DNA of 64,000 bases, taken from assembly GCA_964507845.1 (NCBI GenBank), contig CAZDQW010000001.1, positions 76,702 through 140,701 of the forward strand, in the 5' to 3' direction. The notes under the pieces are model-generated. The model did not search any database. It worked only from the letters and a program-made list of their open reading frames with translations, and had not been told where the DNA came from. Below, in pieces: positions 1,038 through 9,089 of the stretch. Position 1 is the first letter of the stretch. Every line of letters begins with the position of its first letter. The position numbers and the translations under genes are program-made. Source of the stretch: an uncultured Megasphaera sp. (lineage in GTDB: Bacteria; Bacillota; Negativicutes; Veillonellales; Megasphaeraceae).

Positions 1038-2372
1038 TTAATCTTCCGTCAGCACGTCGTCCTGACCGTGTACTCCGTTAAACAGAACGTTCAGGAGGAC
1101 CGCCGTCAGGCTTCCCAAGGTAATGCCGCTTTGCAGGACGATTTTCGCCGCATCGGGAAAATGCTGGAAAAAATTCGGCGCCGTCAGGGGAATCATGCTC
1201 ATGCCGATGCTGATGGCAACCAGCATGAGATTGTAGTTCCCTTCAAAACGCACGCGCGATAAAGCGCGGACGCCGCTGGCAATAATCATTCCGAACATGG
1301 CAATGCCGGCGCCGCCGAGAACGGCGTTGGGAATACAGGCAACGATTGCCGCCATTTTGGGGAACAGTCCCAGCAAGATGAGGATAATCCCCGATGTGGC
1401 AACTACAAAGCGGCTTTTGACGCGGGTAACGGCGATAAGGCCTACGTTCTGCGCAAAAGCCGTATAAGGAAAGCTGTTTAAAATGCCGCCGATCAGCGTC
1501 GATAATCCATCGGCACGGAGACAGCGGGCCAGCCGCCCCCTGCCGATAGGCCGGTGAACGATTTCGCCGATGGCAATGCAGTCGCCTGTCGTTTCTACCA
1601 TGACGACAAGCATAACGATAATCATGGAAATGATAGATCCGACATTAAACGTCGGATAACCGAAAGAAAAGGGCGTAATTATGCCGATCCAGTCAGCACG
1701 GCCAACTTCGCTGAAATTCGCCGCGCCGAGGCAGATAGACAGAAGCGTGCCGAAAATCAAGCCGATGAGAACGGCGATGTTGCTGATAAATCCCTTGCAA
1801 TACCGGTAAACAGAAACAACGACGCACAACGTCACTGCTGCCAGAAAAAGGTTCATCGGATTGGCAAAATCAGGCGACGACGGATTGCCGCCGCCGATCC
1901 AGTTTACGGCAACCGGCAGGAGCGTGATGCCGATAATCATAATGATCGTCCCTGTCACGACAGGCGGAAACAGCCGGATAAGGCGGCTGAAATACGGCGC
2001 GACAAGAAAGGTAAATATGCCGGCAACGATAATGGAACCGTATATAGCCGTAATGCCGTATTCCGTCCCGATGAGTATCATCGGCGTAACCGATGCGAAT
2101 GTGACGCCCTGTATCATGGGAATGCGCGCGCCGACACGCCAGAAGCCGATAGTCTGGATCAGGGTGGCAATACCGCACGTAAATAAATCGGCGTTGATCA
2201 AATGGATCAGCTGTTCCGCCGTAAGCCCCAGGGCCTGGGAAATAATAATAGGCACGGCGACGGCGCCGGCATACATGGCCAGTACGTGCTGCAATCCGTA
2301 CGCAAATAAACGAGACAGCGGCATCATCTGGTCAACGGGATGGACCGCCGCTCTGGGAATGACATGTTTCAC
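1038..2372 (-). CDS. Nucleobase:cation symporter-2 (xanthine/uracil permease, PbuX/UraA family)
   Basis: GLQHVLAMY, NCS2 signature FPYTAFAQNVGLIAVTRV, many hydrophobic helices. GTG start at 2372 follows GAGGTG. Confidence 0.9.
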   Translation of the reverse strand: MKHVIPRAAVHPVDQMMPLSRLFAYGLQHVLAMYAGAVAVPIIISQALGLTAEQLIHLINADLFTCGIATLIQTIGFWRVGARIPMIQGVTFASVTPMILIGTEYGITAIYGSIIVAGIFTFLVAPYFSRLIRLFPPVVTGTIIMIIGITLLPVAVNWIGGGNPSSPDFANPMNLFLAAVTLCVVVSVYRYCKGFISNIAVLIGLIFGTLLSICLGAANFSEVGRADWIGIITPFSFGYPTFNVGSIISMIIVMLVVMVETTGDCIAIGEIVHRPIGRGRLARCLRADGLSTLIGGILNSFPYTAFAQNVGLIAVTRVKSRFVVATSGIILILLGLFPKMAAIVACIPNAVLGGAGIAMFGMIIASGVRALSRVRFEGNYNLMLVAISIGMSMIPLTAPNFFQHFPDAAKIVLQSGITLGSLTAVLLNVLFNGVHGQDDVLTED

Positions 2373-2399
2373 GATGTATTTCACCTCAATAAGCACTAT

Positions 2400-2445
2400 G
2401 AAAAAAAACAGACTGCGGTGAACTCCTTCATTCGCCACAGTCTGT
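2400..2445 (-). terminator. Intrinsic terminator after the LDH/MDH-family gene
   Basis: Minus-strand stem ACAGACTGTGG/CCGCAGTCTGT (contains a G-U pair that works only on the minus strand), followed by a U-tract. Confidence 0.75.
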
Positions 2446-2459
2446 CTGCGATGCGGAGA

Positions 2460-3413
2460 TTATAATCCTTCGGCACGTTCCAGGAAGGAACGGAGAATAT
2501 TGCAGGAATCGCGGAATTTTTCCCGTTCTTCTTCCGTCATCGCTACTTCTACAACGCCTTCCATGCCGTCTTTGCCGATGACGCACGGCACGCCGGCGGC
2601 AACATCCTGTTCGCCGTATTCGCCGAACAAAGCCGTCGAGCAGGGCCATACCAGCTTTTGGTCGTGGAAAATAGCCGAAATAATCATGCACGCAGCGTTG
2701 GCAATACCGAATTCCGTGCAGCCTTTGCCGTCGATTTCAATATCGCCGGCCCGTTTGACTTCAAGCTGGAGGGAATCCAAGTCCATATCGGCCAGTCTGG
2801 GATCATCAGCCATTGCCGCTGCCAGCGGTTTGCCGCCGATATATACCTGCGACCAGACGATGAAGCTCGAATTGCCGTGTTCGCCCATGCAGATGGCCTG
2901 AATGGAGCGGCGCGCACAGCCCGTGCGGTGGGACAGGACACGGAGCAGCCGGTACGTTTCAAGACTCGTACCGGTGCAGAAGCAGCGGTTCCGCTGCCAT
3001 CCCATTTGACGGCGGATGTATTCGCAGATAATATCGGCCGGGTTGGATATGCTGATCATAATGCCTTTAAAATCAACTTCCTTCAAATGGGAAATGACGT
3101 CTTTGGCCATGCGGATAGAATCATCGAACATATCGAGCCGCGTTTCACCCGGCTTGCGGCTGCGTCCGAAAGCCATGACCAGAATATCGGCGTCGTTTAG
3201 TTCTTCATATCCGCCGGCGCGAACCTGCGCGTCGCGTCCGCACAGGGAACCGCTGATCCCGTCGTCCAGGTCCATGGCCTGCCCTATGGCCTTATCCTGC
3301 AATATATCAATCAAAACGATATCATCGGCTTCACCGGACTGAATCAGCGCCAACGCGACGTGAGACCCTACATGGCCGGCGCCGACAATAACTACTTTAC
3401 GTGTTTTTACCAT
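2460..3413 (-). CDS. LDH/MDH-superfamily NAD-dependent 2-hydroxyacid dehydrogenase
   Basis: GAGHVG Rossmann motif, IDI (NAD), mobile loop GRSRKPGETRLDM, ISNPAD, GEHGNS catalytic His. Start moved to ATG 3413 after GAAGGAGG. Extended -10 TGCTATAAT upstream. Confidence 0.9.
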   Translation of the reverse strand: MVKTRKVVIVGAGHVGSHVALALIQSGEADDIVLIDILQDKAIGQAMDLDDGISGSLCGRDAQVRAGGYEELNDADILVMAFGRSRKPGETRLDMFDDSIRMAKDVISHLKEVDFKGIMISISNPADIICEYIRRQMGWQRNRCFCTGTSLETYRLLRVLSHRTGCARRSIQAICMGEHGNSSFIVWSQVYIGGKPLAAAMADDPRLADMDLDSLQLEVKRAGDIEIDGKGCTEFGIANAACMIISAIFHDQKLVWPCSTALFGEYGEQDVAAGVPCVIGKDGMEGVVEVAMTEEEREKFRDSCNILRSFLERAEGL

Positions 3414-3681
3414 AACATATCCTCCTTCAGCAGATACTGACCGCATCTACATATACATCAAATCTCATTTCATTATAGCATATACAAAGGGGAAAAAATG
3501 CTCCTTTTCTTAAATTTTTGTTTTTACTTTTTTTCATTCATTATCTGTCTGCATCTCTTCGCACAGCCGCATTATATTATTACCGCTTGCCGTATGGTTC
3601 GTAAATAATCCTGTTCCCGATATGTAGCGCCGAGCCTTTCCGCACAGGAAAATTCACACGATTTCCGACGTCGTGCAATAT

Positions 3682-3715
3682 AAAAGACGGGCAAAGGATT
3701 TCTTTGCCCGTCTTT
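3682..3715 (-). terminator. Intrinsic terminator after the desulfidase gene
   Basis: Perfect 14-bp stem AAAGACGGGCAAAG/CTTTGCCCGTCTTT. Confidence 0.8.
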
Positions 3716-3746
3716 GTCTGCATACAGATAAAGAGATGTTCATCTA

Positions 3747-5057
3747 TTATTGTCTGCCCTTATTTTTGTGAAGCATGATGTTTAAAATTTCATCGTCTGC
3801 TGCTTTCATGCCGCAGCAGGCAAGAGCGCCGACGTTGCGGATACATTCGTCGGCATCATCGGCTACAAGGCCGTCGCTGCCGCCGACGCGGACGCCGTCA
3901 AGAGCCAGAATCACGGAACGGAATGCCGATGAAACGGCTGTGACAACTTTCATGGAACAGCTGTTGGCCGCGCCGTCACAGACCATGCCGACGGCGTCGC
4001 CGGTCATGCTGCAGACGGCATGGCGAATCGTCCTGACGCTGTTTTCCCGGTCCAAAAGCCACGCCATGCCGGCGGCAGCTCCCATAGATGCCGTCAGGGC
4101 CGCGCACAGCGCCGATAATTTCGGCAGGAAAGCATGGGCGTAAATCGCCGTCATGTGAGATAACACCAAGGCGCGCAGCCGTTCTTCATCAGAAGCGTTC
4201 AGGTAATCCGCCACGACAACGACCGGTTCCGTCGCCGCAATTCCCTGGTTTCCCGAACCGGAATTCGTCACCGCCGGTAGCGGCGCTCCGCCCATGCGGG
4301 CATCTGATGCGGCAGCAGTCCGAATGATAACCTCGTTCATCAAATCACGGCCCACAATGCCTTTCTCTTGTTTTTTGCGCATTGCAGAACCGATAGCCAG
4401 TCCGTATTTTCTCGTCAAACCTTCCTTAGACAGGGCGTCGTTTACTTCTCCGGCCTGCTTCATGAAATCAATCGCTTCCAGCGGTACCTGTTCCGCAAAT
4501 TCGACAATTTCGCAGATAGACAGTTTTTGAAGAAACGCTTGCTTTTCTTCAAAGGCAGTATCTTCTCCCTGTTCGGCCCTGAATATACTATTGCCGTCTT
4601 TTTCAATCCGTACAACGTTCGTATGCGCATCGGCAATACAAACTTTGGCTGTATGATTTTTTCCTTTGACCAACGCTTCGGCATATAGGACATTCGGCAC
4701 TTCTCTAGCAATCTGTATCGTAACAAGGCCCATGTCCGCCATGCGTTTCCCCGCCTCAATGTGATCGGGAGAAATTCCGTTTAAAACCTGAAGACCCTTT
4801 GACGGATCTCCGCCCAAGGCTCCCACAGCGGCGGCAATATGCAGCCCGTGCCGTCCTGTACCGGGAACCATGACGCCCATGCCGTTTTTCATCAGATTCG
4901 CCGATACGCGGGCTTCGACAGACAATACAGGTTCGCCTAATTCACGGGCGGCCGAAGCTGCCGCAAAGGCCAGCGACACAGGTTCCGTACAGCCCGTTGC
5001 CGGAATAACGTCGCCTTTCATAATTTCAATCATTTTTTCCCATGTTGCAGTAATCAT
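3747..5057 (-). CDS. cyuA: L-cysteine desulfidase / serine dehydratase alpha-like (YhaM/CyuA family)
   Basis: PATGCTEP, DARMGG, NSGSGNQG and GMVCDGAANSCSMK motifs typical of YhaM/CyuA. Lies directly downstream of a YhaO-type permease. Confidence 0.82.
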   Translation of the reverse strand: MITATWEKMIEIMKGDVIPATGCTEPVSLAFAAASAARELGEPVLSVEARVSANLMKNGMGVMVPGTGRHGLHIAAAVGALGGDPSKGLQVLNGISPDHIEAGKRMADMGLVTIQIAREVPNVLYAEALVKGKNHTAKVCIADAHTNVVRIEKDGNSIFRAEQGEDTAFEEKQAFLQKLSICEIVEFAEQVPLEAIDFMKQAGEVNDALSKEGLTRKYGLAIGSAMRKKQEKGIVGRDLMNEVIIRTAAASDARMGGAPLPAVTNSGSGNQGIAATEPVVVVADYLNASDEERLRALVLSHMTAIYAHAFLPKLSALCAALTASMGAAAGMAWLLDRENSVRTIRHAVCSMTGDAVGMVCDGAANSCSMKVVTAVSSAFRSVILALDGVRVGGSDGLVADDADECIRNVGALACCGMKAADDEILNIMLHKNKGRQ

Positions 5058-5072
5058 ACGATGCACCTCATT

Positions 5073-6371
5073 TTACGAAAATGCTAAAAACGGAGAGATA
5101 ACCAGCAAAAAGCCGGTAAAAATAATAATCTTCAAACTAATACCCTTGTACTGATGCAGCATAGGTACCTGATATACCAGATACGCGGGAATCAGACATC
5201 CTACAAGGCCGAAAATCGGACTGCATATTGATGTAAAGCTGAGAACCGGGGCATTTAGTACAATCGCTCCCCATGACACCAGAACAGCAAAGATAAGAAT
5301 ACCGTATTTGACAGCGCCTTTATGAATGCGTTCATCAGGCATTACGCGGCGCAGACAGTTCAGTGCTATACCGTGGCAGGCTTCGCGGAATCCGAGAAAT
5401 ACGCTGAAGTACGCCGTCATAACAGCAAAGATATTTAGGATAAGACTCATAATACGGACGGAATTTCCTTCAAAACCCTGAGCTGCCATAGCCAGCGACG
5501 AAATATTTTTAGCGTAAGCTTCAACAGCCTGGTCGTGTCCCATAGCCAGGTTAAAGGAAATGGCATAAAAGAAAACGACGACGAAAAGGATGGCGAAAGC
5601 AATATTCATTGCCCGAAGCGCCTTGTAGCGGGCCGCTTCAATGGATTTATTATGAGCACGGTATGAAATAACCATAGGGCTGAGGCTTTGAATAAACAAA
5701 ATCGACGTAAGCGTAAAGGGAAGCATAATGATCGTCTGCTTGATGAGGTAATCAAAATCCGGAAGCGAACCGAAATTTGCAAAATCCCAATGCTGCACCA
5801 TGATGATGCCTAAAACAGCGATAACCCCTATTTTTGTCAGTACCATTCCCGTAGATAATTTGAACAGCAACTTTTCACCTCGTGAAGCAAGTGCTACTAA
5901 TATGCAGATAATAGCTAATCCATAAAGGGGATTTGACGAAAGAACTGTATCGGTCACTCCGAAGGTATGAAGGAAAGAGGCACTGTCGTTTGTAATGGCC
6001 GTCGAATAAACAAATACCCAAATAACCAACATGATAAAATACAAAATTCCCAGAAAAAACCCCCAGTTTTTTCCTAAATATCCGGCAATAATACTCGGAT
6101 AATCTTCTGCTTTTTCCGCAGCAGCCAGCGTATTGATAAACAGTTTCTGAAATAAATACATCGCCGGGTAACCGATAACGGAAGATAGTAAATAAATCCA
6201 AATACCGGCAATCCCGACCTGAACAGGCAGAAAGACGATGCCGGCGCCAATAGCCATGCCGATACTCATGATGACCCAGCCCCAGTCAGTGCTGTCGAAA
6301 GCAATCGCCTGCTTCCATTCCTCTTCCGTCATTCCTGCACGCTGCGCATGAGTCAATTTTTGTGTTGCCAT
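5073..6371 (-). CDS. cyuP: HAAAP-family amino acid permease (YhaO/CyuP type; cysteine/serine)
   Basis: N-terminus RAGMTEEEWKQAIAFDSTDWGWVIMSIGMAIGAGIVFLPVQVG resembles E. coli YhaO as recalled. About 11 TM helices. Confidence 0.82.
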   Translation of the reverse strand: MATQKLTHAQRAGMTEEEWKQAIAFDSTDWGWVIMSIGMAIGAGIVFLPVQVGIAGIWIYLLSSVIGYPAMYLFQKLFINTLAAAEKAEDYPSIIAGYLGKNWGFFLGILYFIMLVIWVFVYSTAITNDSASFLHTFGVTDTVLSSNPLYGLAIICILVALASRGEKLLFKLSTGMVLTKIGVIAVLGIIMVQHWDFANFGSLPDFDYLIKQTIIMLPFTLTSILFIQSLSPMVISYRAHNKSIEAARYKALRAMNIAFAILFVVVFFYAISFNLAMGHDQAVEAYAKNISSLAMAAQGFEGNSVRIMSLILNIFAVMTAYFSVFLGFREACHGIALNCLRRVMPDERIHKGAVKYGILIFAVLVSWGAIVLNAPVLSFTSICSPIFGLVGCLIPAYLVYQVPMLHQYKGISLKIIIFTGFLLVISPFLAFS

Positions 6372-6472
6372 AAAAAATTTCATCTCCTTTGTACTATTAT
6401 GGCGGCAATATAATGCCAACTATGAGTTGAATACCGGTATTGGCCCCTACTTCCATCCGATACATTTCTGTT

Positions 6473-7165
6473 TTATTCCGAAACGTTCGGTGCTTCTTCC
6501 CTGCGGATGCGCTGCAAATACCGATATACCGTCGGTTCTGAAACTTCCAGCGTATCGGCCAGTGCGGAAATACCTCCTTTCAGCAGAAACAGCCCATCGT
6601 CGTGTAAATCGTGGATTACTTGGATGCGCTCCTTCATGGACAGCCGTTTCGGCTCAGCGGGATATTCTGCAAGCCGTTTGTTAATCATATTTTCAATGGC
6701 ATCTCCGGCAGTCTTGTATAAATTTTCAAAGGCATCGGCGCGCTTTTCCTTGCCGTTTACCTGCGGAAGGAAGTCTTCCGCCGAAAGATTCATAAAGAAC
6801 GCCCTGTCCAAAACAGTTCTCGCGTCAATGTAAGGCTGCACATCGTAATTAAGACATAATACGCCGATAACGTCACCGCCGTCGTCCCGGATAAAATAAG
6901 AAGATGAGCGAAATAGATGTCCCGTACTTCCTTTGCCATGATAATTGGCCACATAAGGAACTTGACCGCTTTTTTCCTGCTGCAGCAGTTTCAGTACCAA
7001 ATCCGTCAGTGAACCGCCGATACGGCGGCCGCTCAAATGTCCGTTGGCAATGGCTATAATAGAATGTTCCGGGTCGCTTACATCATGTAACACAACTTCA
7101 CAATGTTCCCCTAATGCTTTACCCAAAAATTCCACTAAAAGAATATATGCATCTAATTTTCCCAT
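6473..7165 (-). CDS. YheO/DauR-like transcriptional regulator (PAS_6 + HTH_22)
   Basis: CEVVLHD...IIAIANGHLSGRRIGG...RSSSYFIRD...IGVLCLN; C-terminal GLFLLKGGISALADTLEVSEPTVYRYL. Confidence 0.9.
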   Translation of the reverse strand: MGKLDAYILLVEFLGKALGEHCEVVLHDVSDPEHSIIAIANGHLSGRRIGGSLTDLVLKLLQQEKSGQVPYVANYHGKGSTGHLFRSSSYFIRDDGGDVIGVLCLNYDVQPYIDARTVLDRAFFMNLSAEDFLPQVNGKEKRADAFENLYKTAGDAIENMINKRLAEYPAEPKRLSMKERIQVIHDLHDDGLFLLKGGISALADTLEVSEPTVYRYLQRIRREEAPNVSE

Positions 7166-7316
7166 TTTCTTCCCCTCCTTTCTTGATTTAATAAAATGTT
7201 ATCATCTTAATAATATTTTTTCAATGTCTTTTTGACAAGATATGCCGTTCATATAAAATCGGCAATTTCCGTCATAAATTCATGCATTTCCTGTATTTTT
7301 GTATTTCTAAAAAATA

Positions 7317-7360
7317 CAAAAATGACTGATGTTTGCATACACTCATTCAAAACATCAGTC
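7317..7360 (-). terminator. Terminator-like hairpin after the GGT gene
   Basis: 11-bp stem GACTGATGTTT/AAACATCAGTC with U-rich tail on the minus strand. Confidence 0.6.
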
Positions 7361-7469
7361 GCATAAATCTAATATTCACTTAAGTATTTTCAATATGCCG
7401 AAAAGCGTCTTTTGTGATTTTTATAACTATTTCAATGCCTATCAGGAATAAAAACTATGTATCATAGAG

Positions 7470-9089
7470 CTACCAAGCGGCAACAGTTCCGTCGGCTCGC
7501 GGCTCCGTCGCTCCCATTAATACGCCGTCTTCACTGCGCCAGATAATTTGCCCCCGTCCATAGGCCATAATATCAGAATTGACGACGACATCATGGCCTC
7601 TTGCTTTCAAACCGGCAATAATCTTTTCGCCGACAGCGGGCTCTACTTCTATGGTTTTTCCGCCTACCCACTGCCACCGCGGCGCATCAAGAGCAGCTTG
7701 CGGATTGAGGTGATAATCTATCGTGTTCATGAGTACCTGCATCTGTCCCTGCGGCTGCATAAATCCTCCCATGACGCCGAAGGGGCCTACAGGCTTTCCT
7801 TCTTTCGTAAGAAATCCCGGAATAATCGTATGATACGATCTTTTCCGCGGGCCTACGCAGTTATCGCTATCCCTGTCCATGCTGAAGTTGCTCCCGCGGT
7901 TGCTCAGGGAAATACCTCTTCCGGGAATGACGATGCCCGAACCGAACCCGTCGAAATTGCTCTGGATATACGACACCATATTTCCTTCTCCGTCAGCGGC
8001 GCATAAGTAAACGGTGCCGCCGTTATTGACATCGACCGGTTCAGGCATGACTGCTTCTTCTCCTATGACGGCCCGGCGTTTTTCAGCATATTCCGAAGAC
8101 AGCCAGTACGCTACGTCTGTTTTCATGCAGCGCATATCTGCAATATACTTCCGCCCGTCCGTAAAGGCCAGCTTCATGGATTCAATTTGGCGGTGGAACG
8201 ATTCGGCCGTATCCCGCCGGTCAAAGCGGAACCCGCCGGCAATATTCAGAGCCATCAGTACGACAAGTCCATGGCCGTTCGGCGGAATCTCCCATACGTC
8301 ATATCCCCGGTACGATGTATGAATAGGCTTTACCCATAACGGTTTATACCCGGCTAAATCGTTTTTCCGTATATAGCCGCCCGTTTTCCTGGACCACGCG
8401 TCAATATCGTCCGCCAGTCCGCCTTCATATAAATCCCGGCACGCACTGTCCCTGAGCAGGCGCAGCGACGCGGCGTGATCAGGAAGGCGCAGAATCTCTC
8501 CGGCCTTTGCCGGCCGTCCCTGCGGGAAAAAAGTCGGAAAAAGTCCGGAGAATGCCTCATCTTGCCGATACGGCGCAAAACTTTTCCAACTTTCCGCCAG
8601 CATCGCCGCCACGCACGGCGTGACGGCATACCCGTCTTCCGCATAAGAAACAGCCGGTTCAAACAGCTCTCCGAAAGGTAATTTTCCAAACCGCTCATGT
8701 ATTTCCGCCCATGACGCCGCCGCTCCCGGAACCATGACGGGCGCCCAGCCGCGGTGAGGAACGGCGCTGCAGCCCCATTCATGAAGCGCCTCCCACGTCA
8801 GCCCCTGCGGAGACCATCCGCTGCCGTTCAGCCCGTATAACTTGTCCTTCATCCATATCAAGGCAAAGGCGTCGCTGCCTAAACCGTTGCTTGTCGGTTC
8901 CAGCACTGTCAGGCTGATAGCCGCCGCCAACGCCGCATCGACCGCATTGCCTCCTTTCTTGAGCATATCAAGCCCTGCCTGCGCCGCCAGACTTTGAGAC
9001 GTGCATATCATGCCGCGGCGGCCGTAAACAACTTCCCGCCGTGAAGGATACGGATACTGGAGCGCATCAACCTGCATATTCATTTTCAT
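7470..9089 (-). CDS. ggt: Gamma-glutamyltransferase family Ntn-hydrolase (cytoplasmic YwrD type)
   Basis: GGNAVDAA, EPTSNGLGSDAF, autoprocessing site GG|TVYLCAAD, SYIQSN, GPFGVMGGFMQPQG. No signal peptide. Confidence 0.9.
   Translation of the reverse strand: MKMNMQVDALQYPYPSRREVVYGRRGMICTSQSLAAQAGLDMLKKGGNAVDAALAAAISLTVLEPTSNGLGSDAFALIWMKDKLYGLNGSGWSPQGLTWEALHEWGCSAVPHRGWAPVMVPGAAASWAEIHERFGKLPFGELFEPAVSYAEDGYAVTPCVAAMLAESWKSFAPYRQDEAFSGLFPTFFPQGRPAKAGEILRLPDHAASLRLLRDSACRDLYEGGLADDIDAWSRKTGGYIRKNDLAGYKPLWVKPIHTSYRGYDVWEIPPNGHGLVVLMALNIAGGFRFDRRDTAESFHRQIESMKLAFTDGRKYIADMRCMKTDVAYWLSSEYAEKRRAVIGEEAVMPEPVDVNNGGTVYLCAADGEGNMVSYIQSNFDGFGSGIVIPGRGISLSNRGSNFSMDRDSDNCVGPRKRSYHTIIPGFLTKEGKPVGPFGVMGGFMQPQGQMQVLMNTIDYHLNPQAALDAPRWQWVGGKTIEVEPAVGEKIIAGLKARGHDVVVNSDIMAYGRGQIIWRSEDGVLMGATEPRADGTVAAW

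Follow-up and report, generated by a model that had tools for sequence, protein, structure and literature searches.

A predicted cysteine permease-desulfidase operon headed by a YheO-family regulator, with a neighbouring GGT-like amidohydrolase gene, in Megasphaera

The cyuP-cyuA operon (yhaO-yhaM) of Escherichia coli and Salmonella, which serves the import and desulfidation of cysteine under anaerobic conditions, is activated by CyuR (PMC9040844; bioRxiv 10.1101/2023.05.16.541025), and CyuPA of E. coli is a dedicated cysteine importer and desulfidase pair that serves cysteine fermentation (PMC9040844). In the Bacillota anaerobe Clostridioides difficile, cdsB encodes another member of this desulfidase family (PMC5767170) and has a dedicated regulator. 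Treponema denticola converts glutathione to H2S in three steps by means of a gamma-glutamyltransferase (GGT), a cysteinylglycinase and cystalysin (PMC8182430). Here, we analyzed a 64,000-nt stretch of DNA (the window; positions 76,702 to 140,701 of contig CAZDQW010000001.1, assembly GCA_964507845.1) from an uncultured Megasphaera sp. that carries a predicted cysteine-catabolic operon, yheO-cyuP-cyuA, beside a gene for a GGT-like protein. Between positions 1 and 10200, the minus strand holds open reading frames (ORFs) for a xanthine permease (pbuX), an LDH/MDH-family dehydrogenase, an SDH_alpha/UPF0597 protein, a HAAAP/STP permease, a regulator with PAS_6 and HTH_22 domains, and a GGT-family protein. 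A preliminary description of this DNA had listed the last five as consecutive minus-strand genes, and all of these ORFs are present where it placed them and in the families that it assigned. The components of the operon, by position in the window, are as follows.

3676..3715, minus strand: intrinsic terminator closing yheO-cyuP-cyuA; 14-bp GC-rich stem, -26.3 kcal/mol, z -8.0, followed by UUUUAUAUU
3747..5066 (ORF; likely start ATG 5057), minus strand: cyuA, orthologue of the [4Fe-4S] L-cysteine desulfidase; 49% identity to E. coli CyuA (432 aa)
5073..6419 (ORF; likely start ATG 6371), minus strand: cyuP, orthologue of the L-cysteine importer, HAAAP/STP family; 72% identity to E. coli CyuP (429 aa)
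6473..7165, minus strand: gene for the YheO-family regulator; PF08348 3.3e-41, PF13309 6.7e-17
7196..7224, minus strand: predicted promoter of yheO-cyuP-cyuA (promoter scan); TTGAAA, 17 nt, TG-extended TAACAT

The identity of the cysteine genes is supported by several lines of evidence. The permease scored 419 bits against TIGR00814, below the 525.8-bit cut-off of that subfamily model, and its nearest named homologues are those of M. stantonii, M. hexanoica, and M. butyrica. The SDH_alpha protein matches PDB 9HE0, the solved archaeal L-cysteine desulfidase (2.7e-34), and in a quick maximum-likelihood (ML) tree it shares a clade with E. coli CyuA (SH-aLRT 93), apart from the paralogues that the genome carries on contigs C11 and C7. 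In MmCyuA, the [4Fe-4S] ligands C287, C329, and C336 are strictly conserved and the anion site consists of Arg, Asn, and Lys; the Cys and Glu of the GCTE motif are essential in CyuA and are not conserved in the serine dehydratases SdaA/B (PMC12647591). Residues C321, C363, and C370 of the Megasphaera protein align to the three cluster cysteines of MmCyuA, and the alignment also shows that the catalytic C26/E28 pair and the anion-site residues R257, N273, and K373 are kept. The likely starts at 5057 and 6371, like that of the dehydrogenase at 3413, were chosen from ribosome-binding sites and deposited homologues; read from them, CyuA has 436 aa, the same length as its E. coli counterpart, and CyuP has 432 aa, matching deposited Megasphaera homologues. 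The two genes are separated by 15 nt and follow each other in the order cyuP then cyuA, as in E. coli. Because the pair is orthologous to that of E. coli, has the same order and keeps all catalytic residues, assignment of the yheO-cyuP-cyuA core as an orthologous system that would convert cysteine to pyruvate, NH4+, and H2S is strongly supported, and the cysteine permease and desulfidase named in the preliminary description are upheld.

The G+C content of cyuP is 0.44, and that of cyuP/yheO 0.44-0.47 (GC3 0.46), vs. 0.53-0.55 for flanking genes (GC3 0.55-0.64). Only some Megasphaera species have cyuP between yheO and cyuA, and many have yheO-cyuA without it. The low G+C content and patchy presence of cyuP fit a mobile or recently added gene. 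The permease family itself is strongly conserved (76-77% identity in other Negativicutes), and between species cyuP is 91-94% identical where cyuA is only 67-80% identical, a comparison that suggests a recent spread of cyuP. Elsewhere in the genome, contig C12 encodes another CyuP-like permease (G000:C12:61789-63057; L165 13784-15085, minus strand), which shares 69% identity with that of the window; its gene is solitary and is flanked by a trp biosynthesis operon and the gene for a LysR-type regulator. Two further UPF0597/SDH_alpha paralogues (G000:C11:39016-40347, L166; G000:C7:75252-76604, L167) share 30-33% identity and fall outside the CyuA clade; one lies 3′ of genes for a 523-aa SDH_alpha protein and an SSF symporter, and the other beside an AbgT-family transporter.

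The regulator covers both of its profiles fully, PAS_6 (PF08348) at the N terminus and HTH_22 (PF13309) at the C terminus. It is of neither the Lrp/AsnC type, to which CyuR belongs, nor the sigma-54 type represented by CdsR, the sigma-54 activator (enhancer-binding protein) of C. difficile cdsB. A structure search revealed no relative of solved structure for this protein. In at least 15 Megasphaera genomes, its gene lies directly 5′ of cyuA or of cyuP-cyuA. Phylogenetic footprinting over eight Megasphaera species found a single conserved block upstream of yheO, a promoter of the form TTGMAA-17-TG-extended -10, and no clear operator palindrome. Since this promoter is the sole conserved block, the regulator gene is the first of the operon that it presumably controls. 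The nearest relatives of the protein outside the genus are 33-44% identical and are usually encoded beside RidA and a threonine/serine (PALP) dehydratase, and on the basis of these neighbours the YheO family seems to be tied to deaminating amino-acid catabolism. In loci of other Bacillota (L137, L139, L141, and similar), we observed a recurrent three-gene unit composed of a YheO-family regulator, RidA (L-PSP), and a PALP threonine/serine dehydratase, which points to a general role of this little-studied family. A pairing of yheO with cyuA as a general feature of Bacillota was considered and rejected, because of 28 loci from outside the genus just one had an SDH_alpha neighbour, RidA and the PALP dehydratase being the usual partners. 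In the literature searched, we found no link between YheO-type regulators and cysteine, and judging from the gene arrangement, the YheO family would be a regulator class new for cyuPA.

Upstream of the operon is the GGT-like gene, which forms a transcription unit of its own and is divergent from a lipid kinase gene.

7310..7360, minus strand: intrinsic terminator 3′ of the GGT-like gene; hairpin of -13.8 kcal/mol, z -2.4, then a U-rich tail
7470..9089, minus strand: GGT-like N-terminal nucleophile (Ntn) amidohydrolase gene, own transcription unit; Pfam G_glu_transpept 474 bits
9292..10188, plus strand: gene for a YegS/BmrU-family lipid kinase, divergent from GGT; DAGK_cat and YegS_C domains, TIGR00147 above cut-off

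The GGT-like protein scored 311.6 bits against TIGR00066, the NCBI GGT equivalog (cut-off 357.85), and 187.7 bits against PRK09615 (cut-off 990). It matches PDB 2NLZ, a 'cephalosporin acylase' of Bacillus halodurans, over residues 4-539 (6.9e-202, 675 bits), and because this match is near full-length we place the protein in the YwrD/class-IV-acylase-like branch, as a predicted cytoplasmic YwrD- or class-IV cephalosporin-acylase-like Ntn hydrolase. The first 50 residues contain no hydrophobic segment (top Kyte-Doolittle 11-residue mean, 0.67), and the alignment to 2NLZ, a cytoplasmic protein, starts at residue 4, in agreement with an earlier remark that the protein lacks a signal peptide. The Ntn machinery is in place, with nucleophile T359 aligned to T391 of E. 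coli GGT (EcGGT) and the oxyanion residues G441-G442 aligned to G483-G484.

A clue to the role of this protein comes from the genes that follow it. Synteny was counted in the 24 Megasphaera genomes that carry GGT, with G000 denoting the genome of the window. The divergent DAGK-GGT pair occurs in all Megasphaera loci long enough to show it, and in 20 of the 24 genomes GGT is directly followed by a gene of cysteine-lyase type. Three kinds of such genes were found, namely pyridoxal phosphate (PLP) lyases of the DcyD/CuyA family and two lineages of CyuA, A and B, that are split in the CyuA tree:

DcyD/CuyA-family PLP lyase 3′ of GGT, co-oriented, 70-105 bp: G003, G006, G015, G019, G020, G021, G022, and Megasphaera sp. 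UBA1696 (n = 8)
DcyD/CuyA-family PLP lyase 3′ of GGT, convergent: G009, G023 (n = 2)
yheO-cyuA (lineage A) 3′ of GGT, then a convergent DcyD-like gene except in G007, where the contig stops behind cyuA: G002, G007, G011, G012, G014 (n = 5)
yheO-cyuP-cyuA (lineage A) 3′ of GGT, without a DcyD-like gene: G000, G001, G010 (n = 3)
CyuA lineage B and an Mrp-type Fe-S carrier 3′ of GGT: G005, G008 (n = 2)
other genes 3′ of GGT: G004, G017 (n = 2)
contig ends, slot content indeterminate or atypical: G016, G018 (n = 2)

In G005 and G008, cyuA starts 25-27 nt past the GGT stop codon, with a ribosome-binding site and no hairpin, and the 66 nt that precede the DcyD-like gene in G015 have, by eye, no evident terminator; two of the three arrangements thus look operonic with GGT. 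No DcyD-like gene was found in G000. We built a FastTree phylogeny of GGT with homologues of other families as the root. Its basal branches carry the GGT-cyuA(B)-Mrp type and its crown the DcyD-like type, and the yheO-cyuA cassette is found in one subclade, the DcyD-like gene being lost in the lineage of the window. Read in this way, the tree points to at least three separate gains or replacements that placed a gene of cysteine-lyase type directly 3′ of GGT. Since at least three events at one position are hard to ascribe to chance, they support a functional link between the GGT-like protein and cysteine catabolism. The slot itself is variable and is bordered by pbuX in 12 genomes. In G017, it is occupied not by a cysteine lyase but by genes for an SAF plus UxaA/GarD-family dehydratase and an HpcH-type aldolase, together with an HpaB-like gene (L027 8224-9723). 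In the two basal species, the gene 3′ of GGT-cyuA on the same strand encodes an Mrp/NUBPL-type Fe-S carrier ATPase (L019 6077-6925, L020 644-1483), and in G004 the Mrp gene is still near GGT, with no cyuA there.

Taken together, these data lead us to propose the following scheme. CyuP would import L-cysteine, and CyuA, with its [4Fe-4S] cluster, would turn it into pyruvate, NH4+, and H2S. The YheO-family PAS/HTH regulator would control the operon from the conserved promoter, probably by sensing cysteine or a deamination intermediate. The cytoplasmic GGT-like amidase would most likely act on an imported amide of the gamma-glutamyl type or a related one (for example, gamma-Glu-Cys or glutathione), and the cysteine so freed, or a product that contains it, would feed the lyase encoded next door. 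We regard it as highly probable that yheO-cyuP-cyuA is a cysteine-catabolic operon under YheO-type control, whereas for the metabolic coupling of amidase and lyase we put the chances slightly below even. The explanation as a whole, in which a cysteine operon, an amidase feeding the lyase, and an unrelated unit of the LDH-like gene and pbuX lie side by side, seems to us evenly balanced. Glutathione as the substrate is a conjecture. No GshA or GshB domains were found in the 94%-complete genome, and therefore a glutathione-type substrate would need to be imported. An M17 aminopeptidase of the cysteinylglycinase type, which could carry out a Cys-Gly step, is encoded in the genome, and of 80 loci with YwrD-like genes elsewhere, 8-14 have Opp/Dpp-type peptide importers next to the gene. 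As a tentative extension, the YwrD-like branch in Megasphaera might be a dedicated cytoplasmic cysteine-releasing hydrolase that feeds interchangeable C-S lyases (DcyD-like PLP enzymes and Fe-S CyuA of two lineages), with the partner replaced in place at least three times, and YheO regulators might be sensors for deaminating pathways, of cysteine here and of threonine/serine elsewhere.

A number of observations weigh against the coupling of amidase and lyase. All six gamma-glutamyl-recognition residues of EcGGT, which contact the alpha-amino and alpha-carboxylate groups, are replaced in the alignment (R114 by S90; N411 by F379, with N378 beside it; Q430 by R398; D433 by N401; S462 by H420; S463 by T421), and the replacing residues are invariant or nearly so across Megasphaera. 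Class-IV cephalosporin acylases have Asn at the D433 position, and hydrolase activity is kept by mutants at R109/R114 and by D433N, being mostly kept in D433N and R109S (PMC8062742). The pocket thus argues against a canonical glutathione hydrolase, though the protein may still hydrolyse gamma-glutamyl compounds. YwrD of Bacillus subtilis is intracellular, dispensable for the use of extracellular glutathione, and without an assigned role (reviewed in PMC8062742). The small subunit of the Megasphaera protein scored 267 bits against 2NLZ and 92 bits against 5HFT (chain 5HFT_B), the latter above the 55-59 bits obtained with canonical GGT small chains. In the genome of the window, 304 bp and a terminator separate GGT from yheO. 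The DcyD-like protein, although of the DcyD/CuyA family, is below all curated cut-offs. A 99%-complete genome, G024, has yheO-cyuA-LDH and no GGT that we could find, and therefore CyuA does not need GGT. The Megasphaera genomes are related, and their synteny may reflect few events; moreover, the slot also holds unrelated PHO4/PhoU and UxaA-like genes and unknown ORFs. Finally, neither cyuA nor a DcyD-like gene was found near YwrD-like genes outside Megasphaera (0 of 79 loci, up to 8 kb of flank). A link of GGT with cyuA as a general feature was rejected on this count, the link being confined to Megasphaera. The linkage in relatives on which the preliminary description made its reading depend is thus seen within the genus and not beyond it. 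Similarly, the suggestion that the protein releases Cys-Gly from glutathione retains the GGT family and the Ntn machinery, and loses the canonical glutathione hydrolase, since the recognition residues are replaced and the score lies below the TIGR00066 cut-off.

The foremost rival explanation is that the GGT-like gene is merely a syntenic neighbour, a core gene paired with the lipid kinase and situated beside a slot where accessory cassettes land, with a substrate unrelated to cysteine: oxamate (for an HpxW-like enzyme tied to purine use by way of pbuX), an amide of a glutaryl or another acyl group, or gamma-glutamyl compounds that serve as a source of glutamate. The separate terminator of GGT, the invariance of DAGK-GGT against a variable downstream region, the non-canonical pocket, and the lack of linkage in loci outside the genus are all as this explanation would have it. 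So are the IQS/NRG/HT motifs that the GGT-like protein has in common with 2I3O and with 5HFT, which is HpxW, the oxamate amidohydrolase of Klebsiella. Danchin has proposed that YwrD is HpxW-like (PMC5270733), and a xanthine-dehydrogenase-like cluster does exist in the genome. However, this cluster is on another contig, beside serine-biosynthesis genes and serS. No purine-catabolic genes were found near pbuX or GGT, the gene downstream of pbuX encoding an L,D-transpeptidase, and no purine genes occurred among the recurrent neighbours of YwrD-like genes in 80 loci elsewhere. The HpxW alternative raised in the preliminary description is compatible with the sequence, and pbuX is its only support from context. 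Chance is unlikely to have put three different cysteine-lyase-type genes directly 3′ of GGT, two of them at operon-like spacing. We consider a mere neighbour unlikely, though by no means negligible, and return to the GGT-like gene as a candidate supplier of cysteine.

A second rival concerns the genes downstream of cyuA.

1038..2438, minus strand: xanthine permease gene pbuX; TIGR03173 556.9 bits, above cut-off
2460..3446 (ORF; likely start ATG 3413), minus strand: LDH/MDH-family dehydrogenase gene; Ldh_1_N and Ldh_1_C domains

In this explanation, the preliminary description is right in that the five genes from GGT to the dehydrogenase form one glutathione/cysteine fermentation route. GGT would yield Cys-Gly and then cysteine, CyuA would yield pyruvate, and lactate formation from pyruvate by the dehydrogenase would act as a redox sink. 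All five genes are co-oriented, and an LDH-family gene lies directly 3′ of cyuA in both the window genome and G024. Nevertheless, the dehydrogenase belongs to the L-LDH/MDH family, not to the D-2-hydroxyacid dehydrogenases, and with 291.3 bits it falls below the L-LDH cut-off of TIGR01771 (303.55). At specificity position 102 it has Arg, not Gln (loop GRSRKPGETRLD), a residue that is kept in the orthologues of G002, G014, and G024. In LDH/MDH enzymes, Arg102 is the malate-dehydrogenase-type residue, and with it the likelier substrate is not pyruvate but oxaloacetate or some other 2-oxo acid that is anionic. The genes also divide into three transcription units, GGT, yheO-cyuP-cyuA, and the LDH-like gene with pbuX, since terminators and the conserved promoter mark the boundaries; folding of the gaps revealed no terminator between regulator and permease, permease and desulfidase, or dehydrogenase and pbuX. 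The dehydrogenase gene stands behind the very strong terminator of cyuA, has a predicted promoter of its own (TGcTATAAT, 3472-3480), and, with a gap of 21 bp to pbuX, is predicted to be co-transcribed with it. Both terminators noted earlier proved real, and the third unit consists of the dehydrogenase together with pbuX instead of the dehydrogenase alone. The gene accompanies pbuX in G002 and G014, where 3.3 kb separate it from cyuA, and the locus of the nearest relatives, G001 and G010, lacks it. On the strength of Arg102, the coupling to pbuX, and this absence, we judged the dehydrogenase to lie outside the cysteine module and rejected it as the final step of the route. It is quite probable that the LDH-like gene and pbuX form an unrelated unit, and a single five-gene module is improbable. 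The combination of an Arg102 LDH-family enzyme with a xanthine permease in one unit is an odd pairing. Just upstream of the window, we also observed a gene for a 1114-aa YadA-type trimeric autotransporter adhesin with a C-terminal SLH domain (G000:C1:70282-73626; L168 4283-7627, minus strand).

The weakest rival, that serine, threonine, or some other amino acid, and not cysteine, is the substrate of both the SDH_alpha protein and the permease, draws on the generic Pfam/NCBIfam names ('Serine dehydratase alpha chain', 'serine/threonine transporter') and on the threonine/serine dehydratases that accompany YheO-family regulators and RidA elsewhere in Bacillota, and we hold it to be very improbable in view of the permease's closeness to characterised CyuP (TdcC gave 69 bits only), the Cys/Glu pair that SdaA/B do not conserve, and the grouping of the desulfidase with E. 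coli CyuA, apart from the other two paralogues of the genome.

Cysteine is thus the most probable substrate of the operon, and the core of the locus is the known CyuPA system under a new regulator class, with the GGT-like gene as a putative, if probable, upstream partner of cysteine degradation. Cysteine-derived H2S from anaerobes of the gut, rumen, and oral cavity affects the host epithelium, malodour, and sulfur cycling. Megasphaera has a CyuPA of the E. coli type, the permease of which is named just 'amino acid permease' in databases. In addition, the YheO family, which is almost without characterised members, is placed here at cysteine catabolism, and the repeated pairing of a YwrD-type amidase with a cysteine lyase provides a testable hypothesis for a subfamily that is known from a crystal structure and lacks an assigned role.

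Among known systems, cyuP-cyuA (yhaO-yhaM) of E. coli and Salmonella (PMC9040844; bioRxiv 10.1101/2023.05.16.541025) agrees with the Megasphaera core in gene order, close spacing, and residues, the host here being an anaerobe. In contrast to E. coli, where CyuR is of the Lrp/AsnC type, the Megasphaera regulator is a PAS_6/HTH_22 protein encoded by the first gene of the operon; furthermore, the locus adjoins a gene for a GGT-like amidase, and cyuP is often missing from yheO-cyuA. C. difficile resembles Megasphaera in being a Bacillota anaerobe with a desulfidase of this family and a dedicated regulator, but cdsB has neither a CyuP-type importer nor a GGT-like neighbour, and its regulator is of a class other than YheO. 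The GGT-like protein most resembles YwrD of B. subtilis and 2NLZ, with which it shares the lack of a signal peptide, Asn at the position of EcGGT Asp433, and the motifs TVY, IQSN, NRG..F, YHT, and MGGF..QPQ; the Bacillus genes, however, sit with chromate-transporter genes, and cysteine-lyase partners were seen in Megasphaera only. HpxW (5HFT) has the small-subunit motifs TV, IQS, FGSG, NRG, FHT, and MGG..QPQ in common with the protein, yet it is far more distant than 2NLZ, and no hpx or other purine-catabolic genes are found at the Megasphaera locus. The closest functional analogue is the route of T. denticola, in which a GGT-family enzyme likewise stands ahead of a cysteine lyase giving H2S, pyruvate, and NH3, an arrangement that is proposed here for Megasphaera. 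Unlike its counterpart in T. denticola, the GGT-family protein of Megasphaera would be cytoplasmic and is without the canonical gamma-glutamyl-binding residues, and the lyase that it might serve is an Fe-S desulfidase, or in relatives a DcyD-like PLP enzyme, in place of cystalysin.

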